A DNA stretch of 52,513 bases from a candidate division FCPU426 bacterium (GTDB lineage Bacteria > Oederibacteriota > JAAXVQ01 > JAUVAV01). The notes beneath the pieces are model-generated. The model worked only from the letters and a program-made list of their open reading frames with translations, searched no databases and was not told the DNA's origin. Location of the stretch: NCBI GenBank assembly GCA_030637655.1, contig DAOWGI010000032.1, positions 1 through 52,513 of the forward strand, read 5' to 3'. Both the position numbers and the translations under genes were made by a program. Below are positions 5,944-37,310 of the stretch, piece by piece; the stretch's first letter is position 1, and each line of letters begins with the position of its first letter.

Positions 5944-6023
5944 GGCAAGCTCCCATTGTTTCTGTGAATATTGTCAAAATATTTTATCCTCATTTTTTTG
6001 TAATAAAATATCTTAAAAAGATC

Positions 6024-6160
6024 CACCACCAAGACACAAAGGACACTAAGGAACACTAAGGAAAAATTAAGTTAAAGTGTAAAACAATAAACATTAATAA
6101 AACATTAATATTTTTTTTGTGTTTCTTTGTGAACCTTTGTGCCTTGGTGCCTTTGTGGTG
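6024..6160. repeat. intergenic inverted repeat built of 9-10-bp ACAC(A/T)AAG tandem units
   Basis: CACCACCAAGACACAAAGGACACTAAGGAACACTAAGG (6024-6061) faces TTGTGTTTCTTTGTGAACCTTTGTGCCTTGGTGCCTTTGTGGTG (6117-6160) across an AT-rich spacer. Confidence 0.7.
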
Positions 6161-6196
6161 TATCCTTTTACAAAATTATTTTATTTTTCTTTCAGG

Positions 6197-8259: not shown

Positions 8260-9617
8260 GTTGCCCCGCTGAAGAAGCGAACCACGATTTTATAAATATC
8301 ATTGTAGGTCGCAAACACCATCAATGCGATCAATAATGTAAAACCGATCTGTTGGGAAATTTCCTGCACTTTCATGGAAAGCGGTTTGCGCAGCACACCT
8401 TCAATTAAAAAGAAGACCACACTGCCCCCGTCCAATACCGGAATGGGCAGCAAGTTAACAATAGCCAGCATTATGGAAATACCGGCCAGGAAAAATAAAA
8501 AATCTTTGGGCCCTGATTTAGCTTCTTCACCAGCCATCCGCATAATGGTAATCGGTCCGCCCAGAGAATCTTTAGCTGATATTTGTCCGCTGATCATCTG
8601 CCACAAGGCATTAAGAATCATTTTGGAAATGTTATAGGTCTGCGAAAAACCCAATCCAACCGCTTTGAAAAAGGGATACTGCATTCTTTTTTCCTGATCG
8701 GATATTTTGAAATTCACTCCAATGACTCCTACCCTTCCTTGACCAGGCAATTGCTGAGTCATGGGTTTGGCTTTTAAGACCAACACATCTTCTCCACGTT
8801 TTACCGTAAAATGCGTTTCCTGATCAGCCCGTGGCCAGACCGATTTCTGAAAATCATATTTGGTCCAGATCGGCTGTTTCTCAACTTCCACTACCAAATC
8901 TCCGCTTTGAAAACGGGCCAATTCCGCCGGTGTGCCTACAAAAACCCGATCAATAATGGCGGTTCCAGCCGGCGCAATTGTTACACCCAAAAGCCAACGT
9001 CCGGATTTTTCATCGTACTTGGGAACCACAGCGCGAGTGAGTGTCTCTCCCTGGCGCTGCATGGTCAAATTCAATACTTGTCCCGGTTTTTGACTGCTCT
9101 GTTCATTAAGTTGATCGGAAAACACTTCCCAATTTTCAGTGGAAAAACCTTCCAGGGCAGTGATAATATCCCCAGACTGAATATCCACAGCCCGAGCCGG
9201 AGAATCTTTGGCAATCTCAATAATTTGGGGTGGCGCAATCGGAACCTGAAACCCGATCCAATACAACCCCCCCAAGATAACAATCGCGGCAATAATGTTC
9301 ATCAAGGGACCGGCCAACAATACCAGGATACGAACCCACCACGGCCGCGAAAAATAATCACCTGGCTTGATCTCATTTTTATCTTTTTCCTCGGGATTTT
9401 CACCGGCCATTTTCACATATCCGCCCAAAGGCAGGGCGGAAATTAAATACTCAGTCTCACCGTGTTTAAAGCCCAAGAGTTTATGTCCAAATCCCAAAGA
9501 AAATTTCAATACACGAATTCCGGCAGCTTTAGCAACTAAAAAGTGCCCTAATTCATGGACAAAAACCAAAATACCCAATGCTACTAACCCTGATACCACT
9601 ACCATCACGACCTGCAT
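8256..9617 (-). CDS. rseP: RIP metalloprotease RseP with two PDZ domains
   Basis: HELGH, GGYVKM, AGPLMN, NLLPIPVLDGG; start at ATG 9617 after AGGAGG. Confidence 0.95.
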   Translation of the reverse strand: MQVVMVVVSGLVALGILVFVHELGHFLVAKAAGIRVLKFSLGFGHKLLGFKHGETEYLISALPLGGYVKMAGENPEEKDKNEIKPGDYFSRPWWVRILVLLAGPLMNIIAAIVILGGLYWIGFQVPIAPPQIIEIAKDSPARAVDIQSGDIITALEGFSTENWEVFSDQLNEQSSQKPGQVLNLTMQRQGETLTRAVVPKYDEKSGRWLLGVTIAPAGTAIIDRVFVGTPAELARFQSGDLVVEVEKQPIWTKYDFQKSVWPRADQETHFTVKRGEDVLVLKAKPMTQQLPGQGRVGVIGVNFKISDQEKRMQYPFFKAVGLGFSQTYNISKMILNALWQMISGQISAKDSLGGPITIMRMAGEEAKSGPKDFLFFLAGISIMLAIVNLLPIPVLDGGSVVFFLIEGVLRKPLSMKVQEISQQIGFTLLIALMVFATYNDIYKIVVRFFSGAT

Positions 9618-23189: not shown

Positions 23190-26100
23190 CTATCCAATAG
23201 AATAGGGCGCAGATTGCTCTGTACGTATCTGCTCATAGGCTTGCTTCATCAGGCTTTCTCCGACAATTCGCTGAAATTCCTTTTCATTCATAAACTTGGC
23301 GGTTATTTCCTCATTTTGATCCATGCGCTCGATAAACAATCCTTCCAAAGCTTTCAAAAACACATAGCCAAAATTATCCATGGTATTCGCTTTCGCAGCC
23401 TGGCGGATATTGGAATCTGCTATTGCGTCCTCCATAATCGAGTCAAAGAACAACTGATCAGCAGGCTTAAATTCTGTGCCAAATTGTTCATTCAAAAAAT
23501 CAATTAACTGAGAAAGCTGTATTTTCATCTCATGAATCTTTCCGGTCCCAACATCCGTAGGTCCATATAGCGGACTATCTTCTGCAACCCGAAGATCAAT
23601 TGATCCTTCGCTGATTTTTTGAATGCGGTAATATTTCAAGGATATCTCATCATCAAAATGATAGGCAGGCCCATAATCTCTTTTAGGCAGCTTGGTTATC
23701 AGAAATCGAATATAGGTATACAGTTTTTCCAGGTCTGTATCTTGAAATGGAATGATTTGAGCCAAAAAGGCATATAGGTTTTTAAAAGCAAACAGAACTT
23801 TCCGGAATTCTTCTCTTTCCGCCAAATCCATTTGATTAAAACGACCAACTGTTGGGTCAAGACAGGCATTCATCCTGGCATGATCCTGCGGCATTTGTTG
23901 TCGTTTTGGCTGAAAATAAACTTTGCAGAACTCTTCAACTTCCTGCTTATGATAGACCTGCCAATCATCCAGCCTGGCCTGTATTTCATATAACTGCTTG
24001 ACTGTTACCTGTTCGCCTACATACGTTTCTTCATAATAGGGTTTAAATGCCTCGTAAATTTCCTCCGGATCATTCACAAAATCCAGCACAAAAGTATCAT
24101 CCTTGCCTGAATGTGTCCGGTTTAAGCGGGAAAGGGTTTGCACTGCATGAATGCCGGATAATCGTTTATCAACATACATGGAGTGCAAAAGAGGCTGGTC
24201 AAATCCGGTTTGATATTTCTCTGCTACCAGCAGGACTTGATACTCATCTGTCGCGAACTTCTCCGGTAATTCCTTTTCTTTAATCCTATTATTCATGGAA
24301 ACTTCCGTATATTCCTTACCCGGCAGATCAGGATCAACCACTGTGCCGGAAAAAGCCACCAATGTTTTAATATCTTTATAGCCTTTTTCTGAAATGTATT
24401 TATCAAAAGCCAGTTTGTACCTGACTGCATGTAATCTCGATGATGTTGCTACCATGGCTTTGGCCTTGCCGCCGATCTTGTGTCTCACAAAGGTTCTGAA
24501 ATGCTCAATCATGATCTCTGTTTTCTGGGCAATATTATGCGGATGAAGACTCATAAACCGTGCCAGAGCTTTAGCAGCCTTTCTTTTGTCCACTTCCGGA
24601 TCATCCTCAATTGATTTAATCAAACGGTAATAGGTTTTATACGTGGTGTAGTTCTTGAGCACATCAAGAATAAAATCCTCTTCTATGGCCTGGCGCATGC
24701 TGTACAAATGAAATGCTTCCGGTTTTCCATCCGTACCCGGACATCCAAATAATTCCATAGTTTTATATTTTGGCGTGGCAGTAAAAGCATAAAAGCTGAT
24801 ATTCGGCTGTCTCCCCCGTTTCGCCATGGTTTTTATAATTTCTTCTTCCTGATCTGTTAATCCTTCCTCCTCAAATTCCTCTTTGGCTGCTGCTTTAATA
24901 TCCGCACCGGCTAATACAGCTTTTAGCTCGGTTGCCGTCTCTCCGCTTTGCGAACTATGCGCTTCATCAATAATCACAGCGTATCTCCGCGAAGGCAAAT
25001 CGCCGATCTTCTCGGTAATAAAAGGGAATTTTTGTAAGGTCGTGATGATAATCGGTGTTCCGCCGGACAAAGCATTGGCAAGCTGTGTTGAATCGAGGTC
25101 TATTTTTTGCACCACACCTTGTTTATGTTCAAATTGATAAATAGTATTTTGTAGCTGCTGGTCTAATACCAGCCTATCCGTCACTACCACAATTGAGTCA
25201 AAGACTTTCTCATCATTTTCATTGTGCAAACTGGACAGGTGGTGGGCCAGCCAGGCAATTGAATTGCTCTTGCCGCTGCCTGCTGAATGCTCAATTAAAT
25301 AATTCTGACCAGTGCCTTTTTCCGCGGAATCAGCAATCAATTTCCTTACCACATCTAATTGATGATAGCGCGGAAAAATCATGGTTTCTTTTTTAATCTT
25401 TTTCCCTTCAATTTTCTTTTCTTTGATTCCCAAATGAATGAACCGGGCAAGAATGTCCAGGAATCTGTCTTTTTGCCATATCTCTTCCCACAAATAGGCA
25501 GTCTTATGTCCATTAGGATTGTCCGGATTACCGGCGCCTTTATCCCGGCCTTTATTAAAAGGCAAAAACACAGTGCTTTTTCCGGCAAGCTTGGTAGTCA
25601 TATAGACCTCATCCGGATCAACCGCGAAATGCACCAGGGTTCTTTTCTTGAATTGAAAAAACAGGTCTTTAGGATCACGGTCATTTTTATATTGGTGTAT
25701 GGCATGCTGCACCGTCTGTCCGGTCAGGGGATTTTTTAATTCAGCAGTTACCAGGGGCAAACCATTAAGACTTAAAACCAGATCAATACTTTTCTCGTAT
25801 TTATCGCTGTAATGAAGCTGGCGGGTAACGGTCAGACGGTTATCTTTATAAAGCTGCTGCGTTTCGGGATTAAGACCGCTGGCAGGCGCGAAATAAGCCA
25901 CTTTAAAGGTTTTGCCAAAGCATTTAAACCCATGGCGCAAAACTTTCAAACAACCTTCATGCTCGGAGTTCAATGCCCTACACAGATCATCCAATAGGGT
26001 TTCTTCTGTTTTTTCCTTTTGCAGGTTTTCAAGATAGGCCCATTCTTTGGGCTGAGTTTCCTGGATAAAGGAAAGCAGGATTTTCGGATCAAGACAGCGG

Positions 26101-26228
26101 ATGCGGTCAAAGGCGTCTTTATCTGTAGGGGCGGTTCGCGAACCGCCCCTACAATAGCCGGCCTTTTTGATTAAATAATCTTCAATCACATCTTCAAAAT
26201 CTTTTTCCTGATAAGGTGCCGGCATCAA
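23190..26228 (-). CDS. hsdR: type I restriction endonuclease subunit R
   Basis: ID..LNGLPLVTAELKN nuclease motif, HSAGSGKS, DEAH, FTATP, TGFDQP, QTLSRLNR. Confidence 0.95.
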   Translation of the reverse strand: MMPAPYQEKDFEDVIEDYLIKKAGYCRGGSRTAPTDKDAFDRIRCLDPKILLSFIQETQPKEWAYLENLQKEKTEETLLDDLCRALNSEHEGCLKVLRHGFKCFGKTFKVAYFAPASGLNPETQQLYKDNRLTVTRQLHYSDKYEKSIDLVLSLNGLPLVTAELKNPLTGQTVQHAIHQYKNDRDPKDLFFQFKKRTLVHFAVDPDEVYMTTKLAGKSTVFLPFNKGRDKGAGNPDNPNGHKTAYLWEEIWQKDRFLDILARFIHLGIKEKKIEGKKIKKETMIFPRYHQLDVVRKLIADSAEKGTGQNYLIEHSAGSGKSNSIAWLAHHLSSLHNENDEKVFDSIVVVTDRLVLDQQLQNTIYQFEHKQGVVQKIDLDSTQLANALSGGTPIIITTLQKFPFITEKIGDLPSRRYAVIIDEAHSSQSGETATELKAVLAGADIKAAAKEEFEEEGLTDQEEEIIKTMAKRGRQPNISFYAFTATPKYKTMELFGCPGTDGKPEAFHLYSMRQAIEEDFILDVLKNYTTYKTYYRLIKSIEDDPEVDKRKAAKALARFMSLHPHNIAQKTEIMIEHFRTFVRHKIGGKAKAMVATSSRLHAVRYKLAFDKYISEKGYKDIKTLVAFSGTVVDPDLPGKEYTEVSMNNRIKEKELPEKFATDEYQVLLVAEKYQTGFDQPLLHSMYVDKRLSGIHAVQTLSRLNRTHSGKDDTFVLDFVNDPEEIYEAFKPYYEETYVGEQVTVKQLYEIQARLDDWQVYHKQEVEEFCKVYFQPKRQQMPQDHARMNACLDPTVGRFNQMDLAEREEFRKVLFAFKNLYAFLAQIIPFQDTDLEKLYTYIRFLITKLPKRDYGPAYHFDDEISLKYYRIQKISEGSIDLRVAEDSPLYGPTDVGTGKIHEMKIQLSQLIDFLNEQFGTEFKPADQLFFDSIMEDAIADSNIRQAAKANTMDNFGYVFLKALEGLFIERMDQNEEITAKFMNEKEFQRIVGESLMKQAYEQIRTEQSAPYSIG
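26124..26153. repeat. perfect 30-bp GTAG-type REP palindrome inside hsdR
   Basis: TGTAGGGGCGGTTCG|CGAACCGCCCCTACA, translated in frame as CRGGSRTAPT. Confidence 0.85.
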
Positions 26229-27268
26229 ATCCAGCCTTTTTCCTTAAGACGATCCCAGGAAACATTGATATGACTGGGTTTCATTATCCTCTTTTTGCGG
26301 TTGCTCCAGGCATGGATATGTCGAATAGCCACTTCCGCATCCTGAGCGGCAGCCGGATCTTCCTGCGTTACCCAATGAACACTGGAAAGCAATTCCATTC
26401 CATAAGGTGTTTCAAAACCTTCAATAAGCCCGGTTACTTTTTCAAACCTCCTAAAGGTTTCCGGGTAATCGCCTAAAAACTTTTCAGCTTCTTGTGCAGC
26501 ACCGTCCAGCAAGGATATTTCAACATCCGGCTTATTTTGTCCGTCCCCATAACCACTGATAAAATGCCCGTCCATTACATTTAAAACATGCCGCAAGTTG
26601 TCCGCGTAAGGACCATAGCTGCCTTTCCGGTATTTCAACCGCAATGCCTCGCCGGCTGATTGCAAAAAATAAGCCAATTTATAAATTTCCAATAAGGACA
26701 ACCGGTAGTCATACCCGGGTATTTTGTAGCGGTTCATCAAACCAATAATCGCCGCCCTGCCAATTGTCATTCCTGGTTTTTGAGTACGGTTTTTCATTTC
26801 CTTTGCTTGAGGCGCACCGGAAGGTTCAAAAACAAGCACATTGACGTTTTTCAAAGAAGCAACCGCAGCTTCTATTCTTGGTTTAACCTCAGACCAACGC
26901 AACCCCCCCAAGCCACAGCCCAGCGGCGGAATGGCAATGGATGAAATATTTCTCAAAATGACTTCTTGTGCCAAGGCTTCTAAGCCGCTATCAATATCCT
27001 CAATCCGGCTTTTAGCTTTCCAGTGGCTTTTGGTCGGAAAATTAATAATATACCGTGGTCCGCAAGCCAAATGAGGCTCATAGATAAACATTTTCCCGAT
27101 TTTGACCTTTTTCGCCTCGCATGCTTCTTTATATGCCTCATAATTTTCCGGAAAAGCTTTTTTAAATTGCAAAGCAATCCCCTTGCCCATAATCCCCACG
27201 GTATTTACCGTGTTAACAATGGCTTCGGTATTCGCATCCAGAATATTACCTTTTTCAAACTCAATCAT
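26225..27268 (-). CDS. darG: DarG antitoxin (macrodomain DNA ADP-ribosyl glycohydrolase)
   Basis: NTVNTVGIMGKGIALQFK, INFPTK.HW, IPPLGCGLGGL, C-terminal KLAYFLQ..YGPY..GFETPYGMELL; directly downstream of darT. Confidence 0.93.
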   Translation of the reverse strand: MIEFEKGNILDANTEAIVNTVNTVGIMGKGIALQFKKAFPENYEAYKEACEAKKVKIGKMFIYEPHLACGPRYIINFPTKSHWKAKSRIEDIDSGLEALAQEVILRNISSIAIPPLGCGLGGLRWSEVKPRIEAAVASLKNVNVLVFEPSGAPQAKEMKNRTQKPGMTIGRAAIIGLMNRYKIPGYDYRLSLLEIYKLAYFLQSAGEALRLKYRKGSYGPYADNLRHVLNVMDGHFISGYGDGQNKPDVEISLLDGAAQEAEKFLGDYPETFRRFEKVTGLIEGFETPYGMELLSSVHWVTQEDPAAAQDAEVAIRHIHAWSNRKKRIMKPSHINVSWDRLKEKGWI

Positions 27269-27277
27269 GGCTCCCCC

Positions 27278-27916
27278 TCAAAAATACCATCCCGATTTTA
27301 CCACAATTCGCGGCTTGAAATCAGCCATAGAAATATGTTTCTCAACTTCTGTTGTTGCCATATTATTCATCACAGCAATGGCTAAAACTTTCGACCAAGG
27401 GTAACACTTGTGGACCAAAAATTCCGCCTGCCTTTGGCGTTTGCGGTCGGGAGCATCCGGGGTATCATTCCAATACTTGCTCCGCATCACGTTCCAATTG
27501 ATCTGACTAAGCTGGTTAAGATCATCATAAAACTCGCTTGGCAGCATTTCCGCATGACCGTCTGTAAAGCACCATGCCTGGCCGCAATTGCAGGCTTCAG
27601 TAATATTAGTAATCAAATAAACGACTTTTTCCTGGCCATCTTGATAACCCACAACATTCCCGTGATGAATTGCGCATAACATCGGAGAACGCGGCGCAAA
27701 ATAAAACGGTACATAATCCGCCACCGTTCCGTGGGCAGCTACCGACACCTGTCTCCTAGCCCTGCGATCCTTTATCTCCTGATGGGCAATACTCAGATTA
27801 TTAATCCCTCGGCTTAGCCTTTCATTATCGCAATACAGACCACCGGTTCTTATGATACCAGGCAGATTACGTATATGAGTGATATGGAATATATATTTTT
27901 CACGCGGATGCTTCAC
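27278..27916 (-). CDS. darT: DarT toxin (DUF4433 ssDNA ADP-ribosyltransferase)
   Basis: FHITHIRNLPGI...GL, YVPFYFAPRSPML, FTDGHA, RQAEFLV with catalytic Glu. Confidence 0.93.
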   Translation of the reverse strand: MKHPREKYIFHITHIRNLPGIIRTGGLYCDNERLSRGINNLSIAHQEIKDRRARRQVSVAAHGTVADYVPFYFAPRSPMLCAIHHGNVVGYQDGQEKVVYLITNITEACNCGQAWCFTDGHAEMLPSEFYDDLNQLSQINWNVMRSKYWNDTPDAPDRKRQRQAEFLVHKCYPWSKVLAIAVMNNMATTEVEKHISMADFKPRIVVKSGWYF

Positions 27917-27994
27917 GCCACCTTCTCTCCCCTCGCGTCAATTTTGCCCGTGACTGCGGCGGAAATCAATGCTCACAGTGCCTGGCAGCTATTT

Positions 27995-28600
27995 CTAGCT
28001 TTCCAAATGATTCCCGGTAAATATTTGACTCATAGTGGTACTTTTATTTGGTATAAAATCAATTCCATGCTTTTCTTTAATCTTTTCGGCGAACACTTCT
28101 ATTGGAAATTGAAATTCCTTGGATGCACTTGGGAACCCGTGCATGGGCATATACCTGTTACACCTATCCTGGGTATCCATTGACCTATCCTGGTAGTAAA
28201 ATGAATTTTTATGCTGTTTGACAAACTCATTCATCGCACCGATCGTGCGGCGGTTTTCAGATTTTGCAAAAACCTTCTGGCCACGGCACAAATCCATTAA
28301 TTTGGTTACAGCTTCGCCGCTTAGGCCCTCTATATAAAGAGCCTTGCCTAATCCTTTTTCAAAAATCTCTGACAGACGCTCTCTGATATCTTTACGCGGG
28401 AGGTTTGGAACGCAGAATGTAAATAATGTTTGCGTTTCAACAAATATGATCTGTTTTTTTCGTTCAAGAATAAATACATGGGCATACCACTCCTGAAAAA
28501 TATCAGGTGGATTTTCTAGAGTTACCAAATCTGCCGTCTTTATCCCCAACTCTTTTTGTAATTTTTGAGTGATGCGTATAAGTACCATATTATGCTCCAT
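27995..28600 (-). CDS. hypothetical protein, DUF6933-like
   Basis: IRITQKL..., EWYAHVF...RKK..IFV...TLF, NRRTIGAMNE pattern; coupled to the hsdS stop. Confidence 0.55.
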   Translation of the reverse strand: MEHNMVLIRITQKLQKELGIKTADLVTLENPPDIFQEWYAHVFILERKKQIIFVETQTLFTFCVPNLPRKDIRERLSEIFEKGLGKALYIEGLSGEAVTKLMDLCRGQKVFAKSENRRTIGAMNEFVKQHKNSFYYQDRSMDTQDRCNRYMPMHGFPSASKEFQFPIEVFAEKIKEKHGIDFIPNKSTTMSQIFTGNHLES

Positions 28601-29819
28601 CCCTCACATCAATCTTCCCTGTAACAGCAGCAGAAATTAAAGCTGTGCGGTATTCGCGGAGTAGATCGATGGATGCAGCAACAATTTTGCGAAACTTTCG
28701 CTCAAAGTATACCAATTCAGAGACTTTGTGTTGCGCTGCGATCGGTGGTACAGGGATATTCTCTTTTAGTAGAGTTCCAGCATTTAATGGTCGATTTCTG
28801 CCTGCCGCCCCACGAGAGTGCTCATTAAGCAAGAAGTCTCCCGTTTTGGTTGTGAAAAACGCGAACAAATATGCCGTTTCCATGAGGTTAGGCTTAGCAC
28901 GAAGAACAGGATAACGATGCGAAACTATACAACCGGCATCATCGTCCCTCGCAAGGGCTACAGCTCCTTCCCAAGCAAATTGTCCACTTAGAACCAGGTC
29001 GTTTGATTCGATCCAGAAAAAATCGGAATCTCCCAACTCAGATCCGGAAGTTGCTTCCTTATGAAAAATGCCTCGTCCGTAGTTATACAAACCAATGGGC
29101 GTATAAATCTCGTCATTCTTCCTGTTGATAGGCCGTTTTATTTGGTCAGCGATATAACCTATTCGCAAATCTTTAGTGGCATCATTTTGAATGGCTTCAT
29201 GGATGAGGGCGGCGCGTTTTTCCTCAAGCAATTCGATTTGTTTTTCTTTTTTGGCTATCAGGGAATCAATTTTCGCGGTCTCGCGGTCGAGGAAGGAAGC
29301 GATAGCTTTTTGTTCATCCAGAAGTGGTAATGGAAAATTAAAATTATTGAATTCTTCTCTAGGAAGCCGCCATCTTCCAAAACCGGACACACCTTGCCCC
29401 AAATGATAAAACAATTTGTGCTGGTAACATAATTGCAGAAGGTACAAATTATATTTGGAATCCGATGTTAAATTGTTTTTTATGGAAAACACTCTATAAT
29501 CTGGGCTTGTAACTCCACGGTATAATGAAATATCAACATAACCAGTTAATAAATCCATATGGTTCATTGCAAAATCACCAATATCAACTATTTGATATTT
29601 CGAATAATCCGAGGATAATTGTCCCTCATTACTTTCAATATCCTTGATTTTTATTCCTTGTCGAGTGATTGACAACACATCATAGCCTTCTTGGCCAGCT
29701 ATATTTTTATTAATATTAAAAAGATATCTTAACTTCCTAACATCCCAATGGTCTGGCACTTTGCCTAACCATTCAACCCCAGAGTCTTTATATTTTTGAT
29801 AGGCTTTTATTTGCATCAC
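28590..29819 (-). CDS. hsdS: type I RM specificity subunit S
   Basis: YKDSGVEWLGKVPDHW, PLLDEQKAIASFLDRETAKID.LI, LLREYRTALISAAVTGKIDV; two TRDs. Confidence 0.93.
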   Translation of the reverse strand: MMQIKAYQKYKDSGVEWLGKVPDHWDVRKLRYLFNINKNIAGQEGYDVLSITRQGIKIKDIESNEGQLSSDYSKYQIVDIGDFAMNHMDLLTGYVDISLYRGVTSPDYRVFSIKNNLTSDSKYNLYLLQLCYQHKLFYHLGQGVSGFGRWRLPREEFNNFNFPLPLLDEQKAIASFLDRETAKIDSLIAKKEKQIELLEEKRAALIHEAIQNDATKDLRIGYIADQIKRPINRKNDEIYTPIGLYNYGRGIFHKEATSGSELGDSDFFWIESNDLVLSGQFAWEGAVALARDDDAGCIVSHRYPVLRAKPNLMETAYLFAFFTTKTGDFLLNEHSRGAAGRNRPLNAGTLLKENIPVPPIAAQHKVSELVYFERKFRKIVAASIDLLREYRTALISAAVTGKIDVRDGA

Positions 29820-30457
29820 GTTTTATTACCTTTATTTAATCGTTCAAGAATCCTTAACAAATGGCTTGCAACTAGAAGCATCTCGAATGCTTCATTAAAT
29901 GTTAGTTCAACATCACGATGACTATGTGGATTCTTATAGCAACTTATCGCACCTGCAAATAAATGTGCCATACCCTCTCTTTCAGCTTTAGGCGCCGAAT
30001 TATCTGTGAGTAGGCCTGATTCAATATCAAACGCCTTACGCATCAACGCTGTGCCAACATGACTTGCAGGCAAACCACTTGCTTTACGAACTCGTACTTC
30101 AACAGCTTTAAATGCTTGAAAAACTGCGGTATCAAATTCTTCGCGTTTTAGTGATGGATACGACTTTTTAATGATTAATGGATGAAACAGAAGAGTAGGT
30201 ACAAGAGTCCATTTACCAATCAGACGCTGGAATTGTTCCTCTTTAATCTGAACACCTTTCTTTGTCGGATAATAAACATCCTCTCCATCATCATCAGAAC
30301 CACGCTGAAAAAGACGTAGGTCTATTAATGTGTTAGGATTCTTTGAGTCCTTCACCCTTGTTAAACGAATCATTTTATAGCCTGGACCATATGTCTCGGC
30401 CAATATAGACTGATTTTCTATATCAGTTGGTTTTTTATTCTTTTTCTTTTTTAGCAT
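29816..30457 (-). CDS. fusion of PC4/YdbC-like ss-nucleic-acid-binding domain and TIGR02391 (Ymh) HEPN domain
   Basis: N-terminal LIDLRLFQ...YPTKKGVQI..EQF resembles PC4; C-terminal AVFQAFKAVEVRVR..G..LMRKAF...EREG...LFAGAI..YKNPHSHR fits TIGR02391. Start set at ATG 30457 after AAGGAG. Confidence 0.75.
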   Translation of the reverse strand: MLKKKKNKKPTDIENQSILAETYGPGYKMIRLTRVKDSKNPNTLIDLRLFQRGSDDDGEDVYYPTKKGVQIKEEQFQRLIGKWTLVPTLLFHPLIIKKSYPSLKREEFDTAVFQAFKAVEVRVRKASGLPASHVGTALMRKAFDIESGLLTDNSAPKAEREGMAHLFAGAISCYKNPHSHRDVELTFNEAFEMLLVASHLLRILERLNKGNKT

Positions 30458-30524
30458 TCTAACTCCTTGAGCCAATACCAATGCATTGATTTTCCTAACA
30501 ATTCGCAAAGCATTATAGAACAAC

Positions 30525-30834
30525 TGGTGCGAGGGAGAGGACTTGCACCCCTCTAGTTTCTCTTGGTGCAGGCAAACATCTTTATAAACGATAGTCTCTC
30601 ATCTGGATTGGAAGTGTCCCACTATGGCCCCGCAGAAACGCCACCCCGCACCAAACGCATGATTCAACGAATGAATTGATCATCAGAACCTCCTTGGCAA
30701 ATGCCGCGAAAGCCCCAACCTCCAATCCAAACAAGACACTTACGTTTACTTGGATGCTTACCTTCAGCGCCAAGCTGTTATCCACCTCGCTGCCAAGAAC
30801 CCCTGAAGCTCTCCTGCAAGGGTAGCCGAGGCGG
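30525..30834 (-). ncRNA. putative structured RNA with tRNA-like acceptor/T-arm/CCA end and ~210-nt rod (unclassified)
   Basis: 3' end AGGGG-TGCAAGT-CCTCT-CCCTCGC-ACCA (30552-30525); GCGAGG (30790-30785) pairs with CCTCGC; nested helices from 30774 to 30562 with many G-U pairs on the minus strand. Confidence 0.6.
30582..30683 (-). CDS. possible 33-aa peptide inside the structured element
   Basis: AAGGAGGT (30695-30688) 4 nt before ATG; MINSFVESCVWCGVAFLRGHSGTLPIQMRDYRL. Confidence 0.3.
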   Translation of the reverse strand: MINSFVESCVWCGVAFLRGHSGTLPIQMRDYRL

Positions 30835-30973
30835 TCGCATTTCTTACCATTGATTTTGCAAACCTCACTTAACTTCCATTTACTTATCACATAAGAATAT
30901 CCTTAATTTTCAATATTTTTCATTATTTTTCGACTAAATAAACCTACAAAAAAAACATAAAACAAATACAAAT

Positions 30974-32425
30974 TCAGGCCCAGATCGGGATATATTTCGC
31001 ATACTTTTTTGATTTATTATCCGGGTCGGACTCCTTAATTAATTGATTTTCAATAGTATCTGAAATAACTTTCGAAACAGGAGAATAATTTTTTTCGCTT
31101 ACATTAAATCTTTTTCTCAAGCTTTGATTAGTCATAACCTCGTTCGTTACATACTTTAAGCAGCAGTGCTGATAACACGCTCTGATCTTTTCCGGTTTAT
31201 TCATCTGTTTAAATGACTTTGCGGAATACAAAATTGCTTTAACATAATCATCTCCCTCAATAAATTCAGGTGCGGGCAGCTGATAGACTTCCGTCGAAGC
31301 AACTACTTTATCAATACCACTTCCTCGTTCTTCGCAAATATTTATTCTTCTCATAAATGAGGCCAACTGTTCATTCCTTGAACGTGGTGGATGATCAATA
31401 AATCTCAAGGGATCAATAAGCGGATTTCCGGCATTGCTGATTTCAATCCTGTCATCAAATATTTCAACCATTGGACTTGTTCCGGAAATACTGAAATCCT
31501 GATGTATTAGAGCATTTGCGACCAATTCCCGAATAGCAACTTCAGGATACATTTTGACTTCTTTCCGCAATGCCTTTCCCAAAATTTCATTTGCAGGTAG
31601 TTTGTCATTTATATAATCAACAAGCCTTTCAAAACCGGTTGCGTATCCTTTGCTCCCAATCTGTTCTTTTATTGTTTGAAGTCTGTTTTTTCCTTTATAG
31701 ACAATAACCCGTACAGCCTTACGAGCAATACTTAAAAAACTGCTTAGATCAACTGCAAATAATACTGCGCCCAGATTAGTAATATCATATAAATCTCCTA
31801 ATCTCTTGGTTATCCTCTCTTCCGACAATTTTTCTAAAATTGCCGTTTTATTCTCCGGCAAGGGAATGTTCATTAATCTAAAGTATTTTGGATAATCAAT
31901 AAGTTCTATAACTTCATCACTTGTCACATTATGTTTTGCTATTCCTTCTTCAAAAGATTGCGACAACATTTTCTGCCACAACATCTGCTCTTTTTCCGGG
32001 TGATCCGATAACTTTTTTTTATACGAACCCACACGAATATATTCTTGTCCTTTAAAACTCACAGGCCGATTTTGTGTCGCGTTAATTTCAAAAATAACCA
32101 GGCGTATTTCCTGATAAATATGTTCAATGATGGAAAAATGGACCTGAGGATCGAGAGAATGAATGAGCCAATTTTCTAATTCTTCATTGCCCATTTTTTC
32201 TTTTTTAGGTTGAAATTCAGTGCCTACCGCTTTATGGGTTTGATCTTCGATCCCAAATATTAAATACCCTTTTGATTTCGAATTCAGACAAGCTGAATTG
32301 GCAAGAGCGGAAATATATTCTCCAATTTGCTGTGGTTTAAAATTACTTACTTTAAATTCAAACCATTCTGTTTCGCCTGGCATTCTCCGCATTTCATCAA
32401 TTTTCGCATTGAGTCGCGCGCTCAT
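30974..32425 (-). CDS. Schlafen/AlbA_2 domain protein with HATPase_c_4 (RecG C-terminal-like) domain and C-terminal wHTH
   Basis: ETEWFEFK, ISALANS..GYLIFGIED, YIRVGS; YPEVAIRELVANALIHQDF, RIEISNAG, SRNEQLA, EERGSGI. ATGA-coupled to hsdM. Confidence 0.85.
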   Translation of the reverse strand: MSARLNAKIDEMRRMPGETEWFEFKVSNFKPQQIGEYISALANSACLNSKSKGYLIFGIEDQTHKAVGTEFQPKKEKMGNEELENWLIHSLDPQVHFSIIEHIYQEIRLVIFEINATQNRPVSFKGQEYIRVGSYKKKLSDHPEKEQMLWQKMLSQSFEEGIAKHNVTSDEVIELIDYPKYFRLMNIPLPENKTAILEKLSEERITKRLGDLYDITNLGAVLFAVDLSSFLSIARKAVRVIVYKGKNRLQTIKEQIGSKGYATGFERLVDYINDKLPANEILGKALRKEVKMYPEVAIRELVANALIHQDFSISGTSPMVEIFDDRIEISNAGNPLIDPLRFIDHPPRSRNEQLASFMRRINICEERGSGIDKVVASTEVYQLPAPEFIEGDDYVKAILYSAKSFKQMNKPEKIRACYQHCCLKYVTNEVMTNQSLRKRFNVSEKNYSPVSKVISDTIENQLIKESDPDNKSKKYAKYIPIWA

Positions 32426-34437
32426 TGTTCCGCCACCCCTGCCAACATATTCGCGATTTCTTTCTCTATCTGCTTCAATTCTCCTTCTATTTCCTCTAAA
32501 GGCCGCGGCGGTGTGTATTTATAAAAATAGCGGTTAAAATTAATCTCATATCCGACCTTGGTCTTGCTCTCATCAATCCATGCGTCCGGCACATGCGGAA
32601 GAACTTCGCGCTTGAAATACTCCTGAATATCCTCTTTCAAAGGGACATTTTCATAATCCCGTAATTCTGTATCTGCTTCAGGTTTGCCCTCTTTATCCAG
32701 GCAAACATCCGTGTTTTCATCTCTTTCTGCCAGGGCATTGATCATAGCTTTCAATAAAGCTGCCGGAATTGCAACACCTGATTGCTTGAATAGACTTTTC
32801 AATTCCTCAAGAAACTGTTCTCTGTTTTTCCACACTTTATCTGAGGACATGGAACACAAAGCTTTGATGATTTTTTCCTGCAATCTCCGGCCTTCCTCGA
32901 TCTCTGCTTGTGCTTGCTTGGTTTGCTTGCGTTTTTTGGAGGTTGCCAGATTTTCAAATGCTTTAGTTGATTTCATACTCTCTATCCGTTCAGGGGTCAC
33001 AGCGAAATTAAGGCGCAATGGTCTTTCCACTGTAATCCTACAATATCCAAAATCCTGATTGTCAAATTTCTTCACATACTCGTTTTCTTTAGCATTTCCA
33101 TAGAGCCTGGTTATCTCCGCCCGTTGATTTTCACAGATTTCATTGCGTTTGTTACCCAGGCTTTTCCGCATTTTCTTAAAAAAACTGGCTGCGTTGATAA
33201 GTTGGATTTTTCCTTTTCGCCGGGATGGTTTGCGGTTGGTAATAATCCAGAGATATGTTGATATCCCGGTATTATAGAAAAGCTGGTCAGGCATGGCCAC
33301 AATCGCTTCCAGCCAGTCATTTTCAATAATCCATTTTCGGATATCGCTTTCACCAGAACCCGCAGAACCGGTAAACAACGGCGAGCCATTGAACACAATA
33401 GCCAGCCGCGTACCACCGTCTTTCGGGATTTTCATCTTGCTGATCATGTGTAGTAAGAATAACAGCGAACCGTCATTAATGCGCGGCAACCCGGCTCCAA
33501 ATCTCCCGCCAAACCCTTGCTCTTGGTTTTCTTTCTTTATTTCATGTTCTTCAGGCTTCCACTCCACACCAAAAGGCGGATTAGCCAGCATGTAATCAAA
33601 TTGATGCTGCGGTAACTTATCATTGGTAAAACTATCGCCAAAATGAATATTTTCCATGCTATGAGCTTTGATCATCATATCCGATCCGCAGATAGCATAA
33701 GCATGGTCATTGTAATCCTGGCCAAATACTTCTAAAGTGGCGTCCGGATTTAGTTCACGCATATATTCTTCAGAGATTGAAAGCATACCGCCTGTGCCGC
33801 AAGCCGGATCATACAGTGTCTTGATTATCCCTTTGGTTGTTAAAATTTCATTATCAGGCAGAAATAGCAAGTCCACCATTAAGCGGATGACTTCGCGGGG
33901 AGTAAAATGATCGCCGGCTTCTTCATTACTGGCTTCATTAAAACGGCGGATCAATTCTTCGAAGATATACCCCATTTGAATATTAGGCACAACCTTGGGA
34001 TGAAGATCAATCTCGCAGAATTTGCCGACCAGTAAATATAACCGATTCGCTTCATCCAGCTTGGCAATATGCTTTTCAAATTCAAAATGGTCGATTATTT
34101 CCCGGGCGCGTTTGGAAAAGCTCTTAATATAATGGCTGAGATTTTTTGCAATGTTATTAGGATCGTCCTTTAATTTTTCAAAGGTAAATCTGCTGATGTT
34201 ATGGAATGATTGTCCGGCAACCCGGTTTAAAACCGGCTCAAGATTCTTTACTTTTCCGCTCTTGATGCTTTGGTATTTGGCCAGGACTTTTTCTTTGTTA
34301 GGTTCTAACACACAATCCAAACGCCTTAAAACTGTCATGGGAAGTATAACGTCTTTGTATTGGTTAGGCCGGTAAGGACCGCGTAATAAATCAGCTACCT
34401 GCCATATAAAACTAACTTTTTCGTTGAAATTGTTCAT
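32422..34437 (-). CDS. hsdM: type I RM methyltransferase subunit M
   Basis: FIWQVADLLRG, GDHFTPREV, DPACGTGG, NPPFG; true start MNNFNEK at 34437. Confidence 0.95.
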   Translation of the reverse strand: MNNFNEKVSFIWQVADLLRGPYRPNQYKDVILPMTVLRRLDCVLEPNKEKVLAKYQSIKSGKVKNLEPVLNRVAGQSFHNISRFTFEKLKDDPNNIAKNLSHYIKSFSKRAREIIDHFEFEKHIAKLDEANRLYLLVGKFCEIDLHPKVVPNIQMGYIFEELIRRFNEASNEEAGDHFTPREVIRLMVDLLFLPDNEILTTKGIIKTLYDPACGTGGMLSISEEYMRELNPDATLEVFGQDYNDHAYAICGSDMMIKAHSMENIHFGDSFTNDKLPQHQFDYMLANPPFGVEWKPEEHEIKKENQEQGFGGRFGAGLPRINDGSLLFLLHMISKMKIPKDGGTRLAIVFNGSPLFTGSAGSGESDIRKWIIENDWLEAIVAMPDQLFYNTGISTYLWIITNRKPSRRKGKIQLINAASFFKKMRKSLGNKRNEICENQRAEITRLYGNAKENEYVKKFDNQDFGYCRITVERPLRLNFAVTPERIESMKSTKAFENLATSKKRKQTKQAQAEIEEGRRLQEKIIKALCSMSSDKVWKNREQFLEELKSLFKQSGVAIPAALLKAMINALAERDENTDVCLDKEGKPEADTELRDYENVPLKEDIQEYFKREVLPHVPDAWIDESKTKVGYEINFNRYFYKYTPPRPLEEIEGELKQIEKEIANMLAGVAEQ

Positions 34438-34520
34438 ATTGAGTATCCAATCTTGTGGAAAAATAATGCAGTTATGTTTCGAATTGTACAATTTCCCGTG
34501 CGCTTTAACCAGTAAATATC

Positions 34521-37310
34521 TTAAAAACCAATATCCATATCCAAGGTGAGTAGTAATTCGTCTTCCTGGGGTTTGAAAATCAGCCCGGCATTCAGACGGG
34601 ACGGAACATACCAGAACAGTTCCATATCCAAATGCAGCTTCAGTCCAGTGGAATATACTGATTTTTCCAACCATTGGGCGGTATCAATATAACCATCCCA
34701 GCCTGCTCCCCAATCACAAAACACCTCTGCCCACATATCGTGAAAATAAACCGGCCACAAACCGAGACCATTATCAATATACCACAACGGAAAGCGGTAT
34801 CCGGCAGCAAAGGTCAGGTTGTATCCGGAATTGAATTGTCCTCCGGCATACCCCTGTGGTGTTGTGCTGGTATTCACACTTGGAAAAATACCTGCTTGGG
34901 CCAGGGCTCTGGTACTCAGTGTAATCGCATGTTGAGCCAGAGGCGAAGGCAGATGTAGCATACTGCTGCCGTATAACCGGCGGCCGTCATAGGCTTTGGG
35001 CTGCAAGGCGGCAGATACTTGGCTAAACAGGGAAAATCCTGAGCGCGGAAACAAATCTTTGGGTTGTTGGCAAAGATAACTAAAACTTGCGCCGCCCTGC
35101 CATCCGATGAATTCATCACCCGGGAAAGCGCGCGGATCAGCCTCAAGAATTTTATAGGCTTCATAGGCAGTATTCAGATTAACCGTAATCCGCGTATCCA
35201 ATGCTTGTCGCAACAACAAAGGCAACCGCACTTCCGACCGGAATCCCCGGGTCCGTGCCCAATAACGCGCTGTGTCTTCTTCCACTCCCGGTTGTCCCCA
35301 GCGCGATTGTGGCTGCTGGAAAGCGCTTAGGGTAAGTAAAAAGGGCAATTCTGAATTAAGGTAGGAAATTTCACCATAGACTTGTCCGCTAGTGGGCTGG
35401 CAGAGTATCTGTCCGATCCACCTATGATTCTCCAAAGGATCCTGTTGGCCGGAAGCAATGCCCCATAGCCATCCGTCTTGATCCATACCGGCCATGGGTA
35501 CCCAAAATGACGGGAGCAAATGTTTCCACGCCGAGTAACCCCGGCCCTGTGCAGGTGGCAAATCGAAAAGTTCGGACGCTTGCGGTTGCCTCTGCTTTTC
35601 CGGCAGGTTGACTGCGATCCAAGTACCGGGTTCAAATGGAGCCACTACAATCTGCTGATGATTTCCAGGCTGATACTCGGCAAAGGCTATTTTTTTATTA
35701 TCCGTAGAAATTGCCGGATCAAAAGCTCCCAGATAGGCATCCGTAATCTGATATAGTTTTTCCGCGGCAAGTTCATAAGCAAAAATTTGATGCGTCCGGT
35801 TCCGGTCTGAAACAAATACCAGGTATTTCCCGTCCGGCGACCAGGTAGGATCAAAATCACCGGCTTCATCCCAACCTGTGATCGGCGTGAGTTTGCCGGA
35901 TTGAATATCCACCAGACAGACATCCTGTTTTCCGGCAATCCGAACCACCGCTGCCAATTGAATGCCATCCGGAGACCAGGCAGGAGCCAGATACACAGCT
36001 CCCTTCGGACCGGGTATCAGCTGTACGGATTTGCTCTTGCTATTCACCTTTCCCAAGCGAGTAACTCCCTGCTGATTAACCACACAGACAATTTCCCCGT
36101 CAGAATTGACTGTTGGCGACCAGCAACGTCCGTTTTCAGTAAGGCGCTTTTCCCTTCCCTGTTCGGATACAGAAAAAAGGTCGGCAATATACGCATCACC
36201 ATAAAGCACATCCAACAGCAAACGGGATAAATAAAGAGTTTGCGATTGGGCAGCATAGGTATATTGACCGCGTAATAGATCCGGTTGATACAGCGGCGTT
36301 TCTTTCCCACTGGGCACATCAATAATGAAAAAACCCGAGTCTGTCGGTATGCTCTGCCGATACACCAGAATTTTATTTTCAGCTATCCATTGCGGCTGCT
36401 GATACTGAGTTTCAACAGCAGAAGTCAACGCCACGGCATTGGGCAGGGGCAAACGCGGTTGGCCGTAGATTTTATGAAAATCTCTGGTTTTTTCTATTTT
36501 CAATGCTTGCCATATATCTTCCGGATGTTGATTAGTCACTTGCCGCCAAACATAACCCAAACCAAAAAAGGGCCAAACACTCTGCTCTTTGCTTAGCTGG
36601 TCCAGCATTTTGGGATTGCTGACTGTTCTGCTTAAATAATGAATAAGATCAAATCCCGGCACATAGACCCGATCAAAGGGAAAGGAAAATCTCGGGTACA
36701 CACCAATCTGGCTTAAAGACCAGGGCGCTTCAGAAAGCAGATTGGCAGCCAATTTCATGCGGTGATACGTATTGTGACCGCGTCCGCCCGGCAGCAGCGT
36801 GGATTCTGAATAAATAGCCATTCCCTCCACCCACCAGCGCGGAGCCATAAAATTGAGTCCATGCACTTCACCAAAAAGCGAAGTTAAAATACCGGAAAAC
36901 CCTTCGTCGCGCATACCATGACAGAGATGGGCGTATTCATGATACAGCAAGGATTCCAGCCAGGTGGCATCACCCGGGCCAAACCCTTTACCGATCGGAC
37001 AGGTTAAATAAAATTCGAGCTTGCGGCAAATGGATTGCGCGTAGCCATTGGCCACATCACGCCTGGAATTGAGAACAATTGGGGTTTGTCCAAATGGCGC
37101 GTATCCGAACAAATCGCGTACTTTGGGATAAGCCTGTTCGGCAATAGCAGCAGTCCGCGCCGCGGCCTGGGCGCTGTTTTTTGGATAAATAATAATGAAA
37201 TGCTCGGTCTCCAGCTCCTGCCAATCCTGACCCGGTGTCCGCCGGGCCAGGGCCGGAAGCGCGGAAGCACAAATAAAGCATAACACTAAAAGAATACATA
37301 TTTTTTTCAT
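34521..37310 (-). CDS. secreted/outer-membrane protein: zinc peptidase-like domain, TolB-like PD40 propeller, Omp85-like barrel
   Basis: Signal peptide; HEYAH...WWVEGMA; PAWSPDG and PTWSPDG repeats; aromatic beta-strand C-terminus ending DMDIGF. Confidence 0.75.
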   Translation of the reverse strand: MKKICILLVLCFICASALPALARRTPGQDWQELETEHFIIIYPKNSAQAAARTAAIAEQAYPKVRDLFGYAPFGQTPIVLNSRRDVANGYAQSICRKLEFYLTCPIGKGFGPGDATWLESLLYHEYAHLCHGMRDEGFSGILTSLFGEVHGLNFMAPRWWVEGMAIYSESTLLPGGRGHNTYHRMKLAANLLSEAPWSLSQIGVYPRFSFPFDRVYVPGFDLIHYLSRTVSNPKMLDQLSKEQSVWPFFGLGYVWRQVTNQHPEDIWQALKIEKTRDFHKIYGQPRLPLPNAVALTSAVETQYQQPQWIAENKILVYRQSIPTDSGFFIIDVPSGKETPLYQPDLLRGQYTYAAQSQTLYLSRLLLDVLYGDAYIADLFSVSEQGREKRLTENGRCWSPTVNSDGEIVCVVNQQGVTRLGKVNSKSKSVQLIPGPKGAVYLAPAWSPDGIQLAAVVRIAGKQDVCLVDIQSGKLTPITGWDEAGDFDPTWSPDGKYLVFVSDRNRTHQIFAYELAAEKLYQITDAYLGAFDPAISTDNKKIAFAEYQPGNHQQIVVAPFEPGTWIAVNLPEKQRQPQASELFDLPPAQGRGYSAWKHLLPSFWVPMAGMDQDGWLWGIASGQQDPLENHRWIGQILCQPTSGQVYGEISYLNSELPFLLTLSAFQQPQSRWGQPGVEEDTARYWARTRGFRSEVRLPLLLRQALDTRITVNLNTAYEAYKILEADPRAFPGDEFIGWQGGASFSYLCQQPKDLFPRSGFSLFSQVSAALQPKAYDGRRLYGSSMLHLPSPLAQHAITLSTRALAQAGIFPSVNTSTTPQGYAGGQFNSGYNLTFAAGYRFPLWYIDNGLGLWPVYFHDMWAEVFCDWGAGWDGYIDTAQWLEKSVYSTGLKLHLDMELFWYVPSRLNAGLIFKPQEDELLLTLDMDIGF

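Follow-up and report, generated by a model that had tools for sequence, protein, structure and literature searches.

Type I toxins are small hydrophobic proteins, typically under 60 aa, and in the hok and aapA1 mRNAs a 3′ fold-back element keeps the message locked. TYMV-type plant viral RNAs carry a tRNA-like 3′ end that finishes in CCA and whose acceptor arm is built through a pseudoknot, and the RNase P substrates that are not tRNAs include the phage P1/P7 C4 RNA and the 4.5S RNA precursor; bacterial RNase P recognises U(−1)/G(+1), a 12-bp stack and ACCA. Type I toxin mRNAs under long-range 5′–3′ pairing, namely hok/sok and aapA1/IsoA1, are the subject of PMC5416894 and PMC6733600.

The locus that we compare with these systems is a conserved RNA element on the minus strand of the window (the whole 52,513-nt stretch of DNA that was analysed), and it has no match in any described family. 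It constitutes a small, self-contained mobile bacterial gene, the mRNA of which is a long rod with a look-alike of the tRNA top half at its 3′ end (Table 1). As in tmRNA (SsrA), a single RNA unites a tRNA-like acceptor and T-arm with CCA, a long helix and an internal reading frame; it differs from tmRNA in that the acceptor 5′ strand is part of the frame instead of forming the 5′ end, translation of the frame has a start codon and an internal Shine–Dalgarno sequence to draw on, the third acceptor pair is G3–C70 rather than G3:U70, neither ARAGORN nor Rfam recognises it, and it is mobile and sporadic (1/99 genomes of the phylum). As with type I toxin mRNAs, a small gene on accessory DNA gives a structured mRNA whose start codon is buried by a 5′–3′ helix, whereas here no antisense RNA or other antitoxin was identified, the protein shows no relation to the known families of toxins and a pseudoknot ties the tRNA-like minihelix at the 3′ end to the coding sequence. 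TYMV-type ends likewise place a CCA-terminated tRNA mimic with a pseudoknotted acceptor arm on a coding RNA, but the present element is a bacterial cassette gene, mimics the top half only and has its pseudoknot partner within the coding sequence. With C4 RNA and the 4.5S precursor it shares a stacked helix followed by RCCA and U(−1)/G(+1) at the predicted cleavage site, and it departs from them in that the predicted cut falls inside a reading frame. The interpretation we favour, with a probability of roughly 0.4, is that of a mobile gene for a small protein, whose mRNA locks itself and carries a tRNA-like minihelix at its 3′ end, and for which RNase P-type processing would act as the gate. It would bring together small proteins, locked type I-like mRNAs, tRNA mimicry and integron cassettes, topics usually studied apart.

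Table 1. Features of the element in the window, in order along the minus strand.
Feature	Position	Strand	Remark
Mobile unit, 348 nt	30525..30872	-	100% identity in another genomic context
5′ hairpin, window-specific	30791..30834	-	Aligned in no homologue
GCGAGG, upstream candidate for acceptor 5′ strand	30785..30790	-	Pairing not conserved, looks like chance
Rod helix H1, 5′ strand CUUGG, holds UUG start	30770..30774	-	Pairs with 30566-30562
Long reading frame, 63 codons + stop, UUG start (30773-30771)	30582..30773	-	Predicted small amphipathic/hydrophobic protein
Rod helix H3, 5′ strand	30757..30762	-	Pairs with 30576-30571
Rod helix H4, 5′ strand	30743..30745	-	Pairs with 30590-30588
Rod helix H5, 5′ strand, 16 nt	30721..30736	-	Pairs with 30612-30597
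Internal Shine–Dalgarno sequence AAGGAGG	30689..30695	-	Nucleotide-level conservation
Nested short frame from internal AUG (30683-30681), 33 codons + stop	30582..30683	-	20-59 codons in homologues
UGGUGCGGGG, codons Trp-Cys-Gly	30644..30653	-	Complement of entire 3′ tail including ACCA
Acceptor-like helix, 5′ strand GCGGGG, in codons Leu-Arg-Gly	30628..30633	-	Preceded by U(−1) at 30634
Linker with conserved GGGAC motif	30613..30627	-	
Rod helix H5, 3′ strand	30597..30612	-	Nucleotides conserved though read in three frames across the family
3′ strands of H4 (30590-30588), H3 (30576-30571) and H1 (30566-30562)	30562..30590	-	
T-arm: 6-bp stem GAGGGG/CCUCUC, 7-nt loop UGCAAGU	30535..30553	-	
Acceptor 3′ strand CCUCGC (30534-30529), discriminator A (30528), CCA (30527-30525)	30525..30534	-	

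The fold of this stretch is far more stable than its composition would give: its folding energy is −129.9 kcal/mol, against −103.6 ± 5.3 kcal/mol for 100 shuffled controls (z = −5.0), none of which folded as well. Covariation was assessed in 67 distinct sequences (some measures cover 64–66 of them) with 500 shuffles and with sliding of the helix partners as a second control. Across the rod, the T-arm and the internal acceptor helix, 95.8% of cells pair, compared with 41–57% once partners are slid, and changes on both sides of a pair occur in 226 cells against 63.8 in shuffles, a cell count that overstates independent support since the sequences are related. No shuffle of the 500 reaches 226, nor the observed value on any of the five measures. 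Homologues do covary, with both-side changes at 24 of 43 pairs against 13.9 in shuffles, and of the 47 pairs that RNAalifold predicts, 21 show compensatory changes. The nested rod first proposed from the window alone is thereby upheld in the helices CUUGG/CCAAG, GGUAAG/UUUGCC and ACG/CGU and in 16 bp of its 23-nt helix; its inner helix GGCTTTCGCGG/CTGCGGGGCC drops out, being paired in 68.3% of cells both as observed and after shuffling, with no covariation. The basal helix H1 (pairs 29–33 with 297–301) is 97.6% paired and has compensatory changes at three of its five pairs. As had been noted from the window, the conserved helices contain many G-U pairs, and the fold therefore belongs to the sense (coding) strand. 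Along the rod, the first part of the coding sequence is joined to its last part and to the 3′ UTR, with the UUG enclosed in the basal helix, which lies 8 nt from the T-arm. Among 15 sequences the rod conformer is the minimum free energy structure in 6, lies within 1 kcal of it in 9 and within 7 kcal in 14; in one it is 13.7 kcal above the minimum.

The element had been taken for a non-coding RNA, a view overturned by a frame of 52–91 codons with a clear coding signature, to which 172 protein clusters match. The transcript is predicted to encode a protein of 52–91 residues, 63 in the window. Through the 5′ arm the long frame is open in 66/67 sequences and every indel is a multiple of three; the apical lengths of 19, 25, 28, 31, 34, 46 and 52 nt are each 1 mod 3. 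Synonymous changes make up 45% of the codon differences counted from the AUG onward, where the two alternative frames give 6% and 5%, and 30% of those in the 5′ arm, where the alternatives give 13% and 13% and the long frame is free of stops. The position of the TTG codon is conserved in 64/66 sequences, where it has no good Shine–Dalgarno site, and the internal ATG is present in 65/67 with AAGGAGG before it; this conserved in-frame combination could yield a 20–59-residue peptide as a second product. The 3′ arm of the rod is read in three frames across the family, and in divergent members read-through frames spell the T-arm, so that conservation of the 3′ arm and T-arm must act at the RNA level. 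Among representative protein clusters, 172 match at E ≤ 0.001 and 81 at E ≤ 1e-10, the matches listed being 51–168 aa long. Searches of Pfam, NCBIfam, PADLOC, PHROGs, PDB and the ESM Atlas returned no family for the protein, and the family databases searched gave no likeness to known type I toxins or defence proteins; matches to PufX and an enterotoxin were sub-threshold noise. The N-terminal third alternates hydrophobic and polar residues in a pattern nearer to a beta-strand than to a membrane helix, and the C-terminal core is hydrophobic. AlphaFold models one long helix with low confidence (pLDDT 62.6). A promoter scan of both strands found no sites, a scan that is uninformative for this phylum.

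Downstream of the rod, the element ends as the top half of a tRNA, with a T-arm and an acceptor-like helix forming a 12-bp stack that is followed by A-CCA. The tRNA-like T-arm, acceptor strand, A73 and CCA recognised in the preliminary description, with CCTCGC-A-CCA at 30534–30525, are real, and covariation upholds the T-arm, the loop of which is the 7-nt TGCAAGT described; the stem, given there as 5 bp, has 6, with compensatory changes at 4 of the 6 pairs. The loop had also been called non-canonical, which is true of 22/64 homologues (TGCAA or TGCGA) and not of the other 42, which carry the canonical TTCGA. The 12 nt between T-loop and discriminator are all paired in 63/65 sequences, divided 6+6 in 48 and 7+5 in 11. 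U(−1) and G(+1) occur in all 67 sequences, the discriminator is A in 63/67 and at least 61 of the 67 rows retain A-CCA. Within the acceptor helix, pair 223/333 is AU in 33 sequences, GC in 22 and GU in 9, which represents few independent events because the switch from A-U to G-C largely follows two clades; further A-U replacements, in different lineages, occur at 222/334 (1 sequence), 224/332 (3) and 225/331 (2). The third acceptor pair is G-C in 65/67 sequences and A-U in one. One column of the linker co-varies with T-loop position 55 (mutual information 0.68). Folded in isolation, the 3′ domain gives the acceptor helix and T-arm alone, and its consensus fold contains neither a D arm nor an anticodon arm, only an unsupported 3-bp hairpin besides those two elements.

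The 5′ strand of this acceptor is not the one first proposed. GCGAGG (30790–30785), thought to close an acceptor stem around the whole RNA, is present in the window, but the positions concerned pair in 31.7% of cells against 31.2% in shuffles. The conserved 5′ strand is formed by the last conserved codons, Leu-Arg-Gly, and the acceptor helix and the rod therefore form a pseudoknot; lying inside the reading frame and crossing the rod, this strand does away with the tmRNA-like topology that had been suggested. A nested tRNA-like conformer lacking the pseudoknot would cost 12.5–42.3 kcal above the minimum free energy and was rejected, which leaves a pseudoknot on the rod as the only arrangement for the acceptor helix. 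By our own geometric estimate, coexistence of the two asks linkers of 9 nt and 15 nt to span a rod of about 31 bp. An alternative fold is possible in which UGGUGCGGGG pairs with the tail and hides the CCA; this 10-nt complement pairs in 95.4% of cells, with no compensatory change among the sequences aligned. A bacterial mRNA whose 3′ end is a tRNA top half joined by a pseudoknot to the coding sequence of that mRNA would be a novelty, and the precedents for such an end known to us are tmRNA and the tRNA-like ends of plant viruses.

These features suggest, by analogy, that the RNA acts like a type I toxin mRNA, an inert and locked message. Its translation start is sequestered by the fold (UUG in H1), and for size the frame spans 52–91 codons, with a hydrophobic C-terminal core and an alternating N-terminus where type I toxins are small and hydrophobic. 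Enzymes that act on tRNA ends would then set the fate of the locked message. A ribosome reading the Leu-Arg-Gly codons would have to melt the tRNA-like end, while RNase P would cut between 30634 and 30633, within the Leu codon, destroying the reading frame and freeing a 109-nt tRNA-like 3′ piece. The CCA end and stacked helix would block 3′ exonucleases and maintain the lock, and protein would be made only if processing failed or ribosomes outran it. Such control would fit a selfish stabilising role of the cassette, or an abortive one. Processing by RNase P remains a live idea on sequence grounds, with the substrate features given above as general background all present (stack in 63/65, U(−1)/G(+1) in 67/67, A-CCA in at least 61/67). 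If true, this would be a direct case of tRNA-processing enzymes gating translation. More tentatively, the element may represent a new bacterial class of dual RNA, in which ribosomes and the tRNA-end machinery (RNase P, the CCA-adding enzyme, perhaps a synthetase and EF-Tu) would contend for the same nucleotides, or, put boldly, a cassette-borne relative of trans-translation or a sensor of attacks on tRNA ends. At its boldest, RNase P would cut in the Leu codon, the rod would hold both pieces together, and the tRNA-Leu-like 3′ piece would act on the ribosome stalled at the cut end.

The same 3′ end could serve as a protective cap only, a doubtful but quite possible alternative in which RNase P leaves the minihelix uncut, exonucleases cannot attack it, the CCA-adding enzyme can repair it and the UUG is kept locked; activation would require the tRNA-like end to be damaged, as a nuclease directed at tRNAs might do. 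The start codon in the basal helix so close to the T-arm, the retained A-CCA, a rod conformer at or near the minimum free energy in most of the 15 sequences and the widespread pairing of the CCA-hiding complement are all consistent with such a cap. It does not account, however, for the placement of the acceptor 5′ strand, with its U(−1)/G(+1), within the coding sequence, and the CCA-hiding pairing on which it draws has no compensatory change.

The element belongs to a large hidden family, with relatives in 110 metagenome stretches and 172 protein clusters and no entry in Rfam, Pfam or NCBIfam. A pattern search of metagenomes matched 207 stretches, 110 of which encode a relative, and 80 of these were aligned. 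All 80 align by blastn, with homology starting at about 30774–30794 in the fuller matches and ending at 30516–30527, so that it runs through to the CCA and is not confined to the last ~28 nt. Rfam gave no tRNA or tmRNA match for the element in the window or in 16 homologous loci (three matches with E between 3 and 10 were chance), and ARAGORN made no tRNA or tmRNA call for the element in the window or in 60 homologous loci, in line with the novelty claimed for it at the outset. We did not find it in the literature searched, although supplementary motif or cassette lists, such as those of PMC5737381, could contain it. Of 99 genomes from the host phylum, only the one that contains the window has the core pattern, and neither blastn nor pattern search matched the element in plasmid, phage and viral collections, where the Schlafen-like neighbour is likewise without a match. 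At 100% identity the unit recurs in two contigs of RNA-library run X4, with a gap in cover at 30675–30753, contigs that by their nature cannot show transcription, strand or ends. Their homology to the window stops at 30872 on one side and, on the other, directly behind the CCA (30525), which is also the breakpoint in a DNA relative from run X10. GC content is 0.48–0.53 in the element and 0.27–0.36 in its flanks.

Membership of a defence operon, also proposed from the window, does not survive comparison of loci: neighbours vary, the 348-nt unit recurs at full identity elsewhere and locus L059 holds it as a stand-alone cassette. The window copy is an independent insertion in a type I restriction-modification (R-M) operon, where two accessory genes flank it, and no component of the R-M/DarTG defence locus, and at other loci the element is an integron cassette or sits beside other variable cargo. 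In L059 a 413-bp integron cassette contains the element as its sole cargo; two homologous attC sites (cores 4934–4940/5060–5066 and 5349–5355/5473–5479) flank the element, and the gene for an integron integrase (TIGR02249, 480 bits; cut-off 265) is 2.9 kb away. In the L009 group an attC site follows the CCA and the element is again the cassette's only cargo, the attC sites here and in L059 having been identified by eye. Several other groups lie beside GTTRRRY cores, the element beginning 17–40 nt past the attC core site, and GTTRRRY occurs within 60 nt upstream in 16/64 sequences, compared with 6.1% of background windows. Unlike these cassettes, the window copy lies in an R-M operon, homology on its 3′ side ends with the CCA and not with an attC, and no attC-like site was found in the window by a custom finder that failed its reversed-sequence control; this finder reported sites in 17/66 loci against 30 in the control and was discarded. 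The family offers a candidate function for one kind of very small integron cassette.

This setting also bears on the unlikely view that the element is a processing or leader module at the 5′ edge of cassettes, cutting polycistronic transcripts in the manner of tRNA punctuation for the benefit of a downstream gene; translation of the small frame would open the structure and govern how stable, or how well translated, the downstream cargo gene is. The next ORF downstream runs in the same direction in 44/50 loci, its start often falling about 20–100 nt past the CCA (L027, L064, L072, L014), the element starts shortly after an attC core in the groups just described, and in both the window and L014 it lies upstream of an accessory gene within a type I R-M locus. 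Against a leader role, the element is the sole cargo in L059 and the L009 group, where attC follows the CCA, no downstream family is common to the loci (the commonest Pfam family appears in only 2/50), and conservation at the protein level argues for selection on the product itself. A tie to the downstream Hypoth_Ymh gene was rejected, four homologues of that gene (72–74% identity, in other phyla) having no element upstream.

It is quite improbable that the element is a non-coding mimic of tRNA or tmRNA, aminoacylated or acting as a decoy, with an incidental reading frame. The conserved T-arm, 12-bp stack, A73 and CCA would suit such a mimic, as would the covariation of the linker with T-loop position 55 and the last 11 nt, which are identical to the end of the host tRNA-Leu(tag). 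Yet both halves of the frame carry a strong coding signature, the acceptor stem closing 5′ to 3′ end is not conserved, the D and anticodon arms are missing, G-C stands in place of G3:U70 in 65/67 sequences, and the host genome already carries its own tmRNA.

That the tail is a tRNA-Leu 3′ fragment left at an attR site, joined to unrelated island DNA, is hardly credible: the tail does look like tRNA-Leu 3′ ends, homology does stop exactly at the CCA and a tRNA-Leu gene does lie 4 kb upstream in L059, but the T-stem and the acceptor of that gene are both unlike those of the tail, the best match of the tail among 39 host tRNAs and the tmRNA is only 22/32, position 55 of the T-loop is G in 22/64 tails (we know of no real tRNAs with G there), covariation links the tail to a segment 100 nt upstream, and the element sits between attC sites rather than at an island end, so that identity as an att-site tRNA remnant was rejected. 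Very improbable, too, is an ordinary small protein gene whose structure is a by-product of coding or an ssDNA fold for cassette recombination; the frame is clearly coding and, as PMC5737381 reports, RNA-fold finders also pick up ssDNA folds such as attC sites, but the excess of both-side changes (24/43 pairs), conservation of the 3′ arm and T-arm past the stop codons and over three frames, the G-U pairs on the coding strand and the separate canonical attC sites that flank the element all argue against it.

A 102-codon ORF overlapping the element (minus strand, 30525-30834) has nine relatives in the protein collection, and a back-translated alignment of these nine was used to search metagenome contigs, recovering 110 relatives, of which 80 were kept. 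All 80 align with the window at the DNA level, with homology starting at window positions 30774-30794 in the fuller matches and ending at 30516-30527, at the CCA. Removing 14 identical copies left 66 sequences, which together with the window make up the alignment analysed here. The downstream Ymh gene was rejected as an anchor for the element, four Ymh homologues (72-74% identical, from other phyla) being without it.

Codon patterns show that the element is protein-coding. Every sequence has a frame of 20 codons or more, introduced by an invariant GGAGG-type site and an ATG (65/67); synonymous changes make up 45% of the codon differences counted from the ATG, compared with 6% and 5% for the two alternative frames. 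The ATG frame is also open upstream across the whole 5′ arm in 66/67 sequences, where no in-frame stops occur and 30% of differences are synonymous, compared with 13% and 13%; a TTG lies at the same codon in 64/66, inside the basal rod helix (window 30773-30771). The variable apical region takes lengths of 19, 25, 28, 31, 34, 46 and 52 nt, every one of them leaving a remainder of 1 when divided by 3. A search profile built from 50 family proteins matched 172 representative clusters at E ≤ 0.001 (81 at E ≤ 1e-10); among the matches listed, all are 51-168 aa and many begin at profile position 1, and divergent members retain short motifs such as SFGL and VWCG..FLR. The protein has no matching family in Pfam, NCBIfam, PADLOC, PHROG or PDB, and its AlphaFold model is weak. 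Across the family, all three frames are used to read the 3′ arm of the rod, and the T-arm is spelled out by read-through frames; both points show selection on the RNA beyond the protein.

The structured RNA proposed in the preliminary description holds up as an observation, with a fold of -129.9 kcal/mol against -103.6 ± 5.3 kcal/mol for shuffles (z = -5.0), and so does its unclassified status, neither ARAGORN nor Rfam giving a match to the element. Two of the helices proposed there do not: the inner helix is paired in 68.3% of cases, the same as in shuffles (68.3%), and the acceptor stem formed with GCGAGG at 30790-30785 in 31.7%, compared with 31.2%. RNAalifold on the family gives 47 pairs, 21 with compensatory changes. 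A model comprising the rod helices, the T-arm and an acceptor-like helix (alignment columns 220-225 with the tail) is paired in 95.8% of 2863 cells, compared with 41-57% for slid-partner controls; 24 of its 43 pairs change on both sides, and 226 cells are changed on both sides compared with 63.8 in shuffles, none of 500 shuffles reaching 226.

Covariation identifies GCGGGG at 30633-30628 as the partner of CCUCGC in the tail. One pair of this acceptor helix switches between A-U (33), G-C (22) and G-U (9), the main A-U/G-C switch tracking two clades, and three more of its pairs carry A-U replacements, in separate lineages. Between T-loop and discriminator, all 12 nt are paired in 63/65 sequences, split 6+6 in 48 and 7+5 in 11, so that the sum is constant while the acceptor/T junction shifts, the behaviour expected if the two stems stack into 12 bp as in tRNA. 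Folded on its own, the 3′ domain forms the acceptor helix and T-arm only, with no D arm or anticodon arm. Of 15 sequences, 6 have the rod conformer as their minimum free energy structure; it comes within 1 kcal of the minimum in 9 and within 7 kcal in 14, the remaining sequence placing it 13.7 kcal above. A nested fold that gives up the rod for the acceptor helix is 12.5-42.3 kcal less favourable, so these folding models imply that the acceptor helix forms either as a pseudoknot with the rod or transiently.

The whole tail (30525-30534), ACCA included, has a 10-nt complement at 30644-30653, in codons Trp-Cys-Gly, that pairs with it in 95.4% of cells. Tail variants (C to U, A to G) still pair with this complement through G-U, and no compensatory change was seen in this pairing; the complement could hide the CCA.

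By its anatomy the element would be a locked small-protein mRNA, as in type I toxin systems, to which a tRNA top half has been added, with the Leu-Arg-Gly codons as its 5′ strand. Bacterial RNase P uses U(-1)/G(+1), a 12-bp stack and A-CCA, and all 67 sequences have the U(-1)/G(+1). Cleavage there by RNase P would sever the reading frame; alternatively, the tail may simply shield the 3′ end and the rod lock. That the tail is an att-site scar, a tRNA remnant, is excluded because its best match to host tRNAs is 22/32, it differs from the tRNA-Leu of the integron-bearing locus L059, T-loop position 55 is G in 22/64 tails, and the tail co-varies with the coding sequence. We found no published description of such an element in the literature, and the motif discussed in passages of PMC5737381 differs from it.

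Surroundings vary across the family. The window's ten neighbour proteins recur in two of the 80 loci, L014 (hsdM, hsdS) and L009 (a weak Schlafen-like match), and among nearest ORFs the commonest Pfam family reaches at most 2/50 downstream and 2/48 upstream. Contigs from cold-seep runs (X4) match the window at 100% identity over 30525-30674 and 30754-30872, with the match lost beyond 30525 and 30872; in run X10, homology to a DNA relative stops at 30525 as well. The 3′ break falls exactly after CCA, and the 5′ break at a G|TTAAGT site resembling an attC core. The window copy therefore entered the type I R-M operon independently, as did the L014 copy its own surroundings.

Locus L059 has an integron integrase gene (TIGR02249, 480 bits) at the head of a same-strand array; one 413-bp cassette there, delimited by two homologous attC sites, contains nothing but the element. 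Sites resembling attC also flank the element in the L009 group, and in 16/64 sequences the 60 nt upstream include a strict GTTRRRY core, compared with 6.1% of background windows; no attC was found in the window. The L059 integron is complete (949-9161): a tRNA-Leu(caa) gene comes first, then the integrase gene on the opposite strand, then the array, whose homologous attC sites measure about 125-133 nt. Six of its cassette ORFs were scanned, none reaching an NCBIfam family cut-off; one has a weak sub-threshold IscB match. Elsewhere, one subgroup of the family (L024, 5267-5485; likewise placed in L013, L021, L022, L023, L029) carries a conserved small ORF of ~70 codons with a Trp-rich start (MSDEKWW) ~25 nt after the CCA, and a second subgroup (L038, L046, L052, L061, L073, L050) a conserved Cys-rich, zinc-ribbon-like ORF upstream that stops ~15 nt ahead of the rod.

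Immediate surroundings of the element in the window
Feature	Position or length	Strand	Placement
Gap holding the element	450 nt	minus strand	
Schlafen/AlbA_2 + HATPase_c_4 gene	30974-32425	minus-strand setting	upstream of element
Hypoth_Ymh (HEPN-like) gene	29816-30457	minus-strand setting	downstream of element

The element forms a GC-rich island (0.48-0.53 compared with 0.27-0.36 in the flanks), is single-copy in its own genome and was not found by blastn in 60 relatives; among 99 genomes of the host phylum, its core pattern was found in one, the window's own. The surrounding operon (window 23190-34674, minus strand) runs hsdM, Schlafen/AlbA_2 gene, Hypoth_Ymh gene, hsdS, DUF6933, DarT, DarG, hsdR, a type I R-M operon with five inserted accessory genes: Schlafen/AlbA_2-HATPase_c_4, Hypoth_Ymh/HEPN-like, DUF6933 (PADLOC PDC-S63), and a complete DarT-DarG pair between hsdS and hsdR. 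On contig C23 of genome G000 (31175-31251), a tRNA with anticodon ACA, called 'tRNA-Cys' by ARAGORN, has a 3′ half near-identical to tRNA-Arg(ACG) on contig C91 and may be an anticodon-mutated Arg tRNA paralogue.
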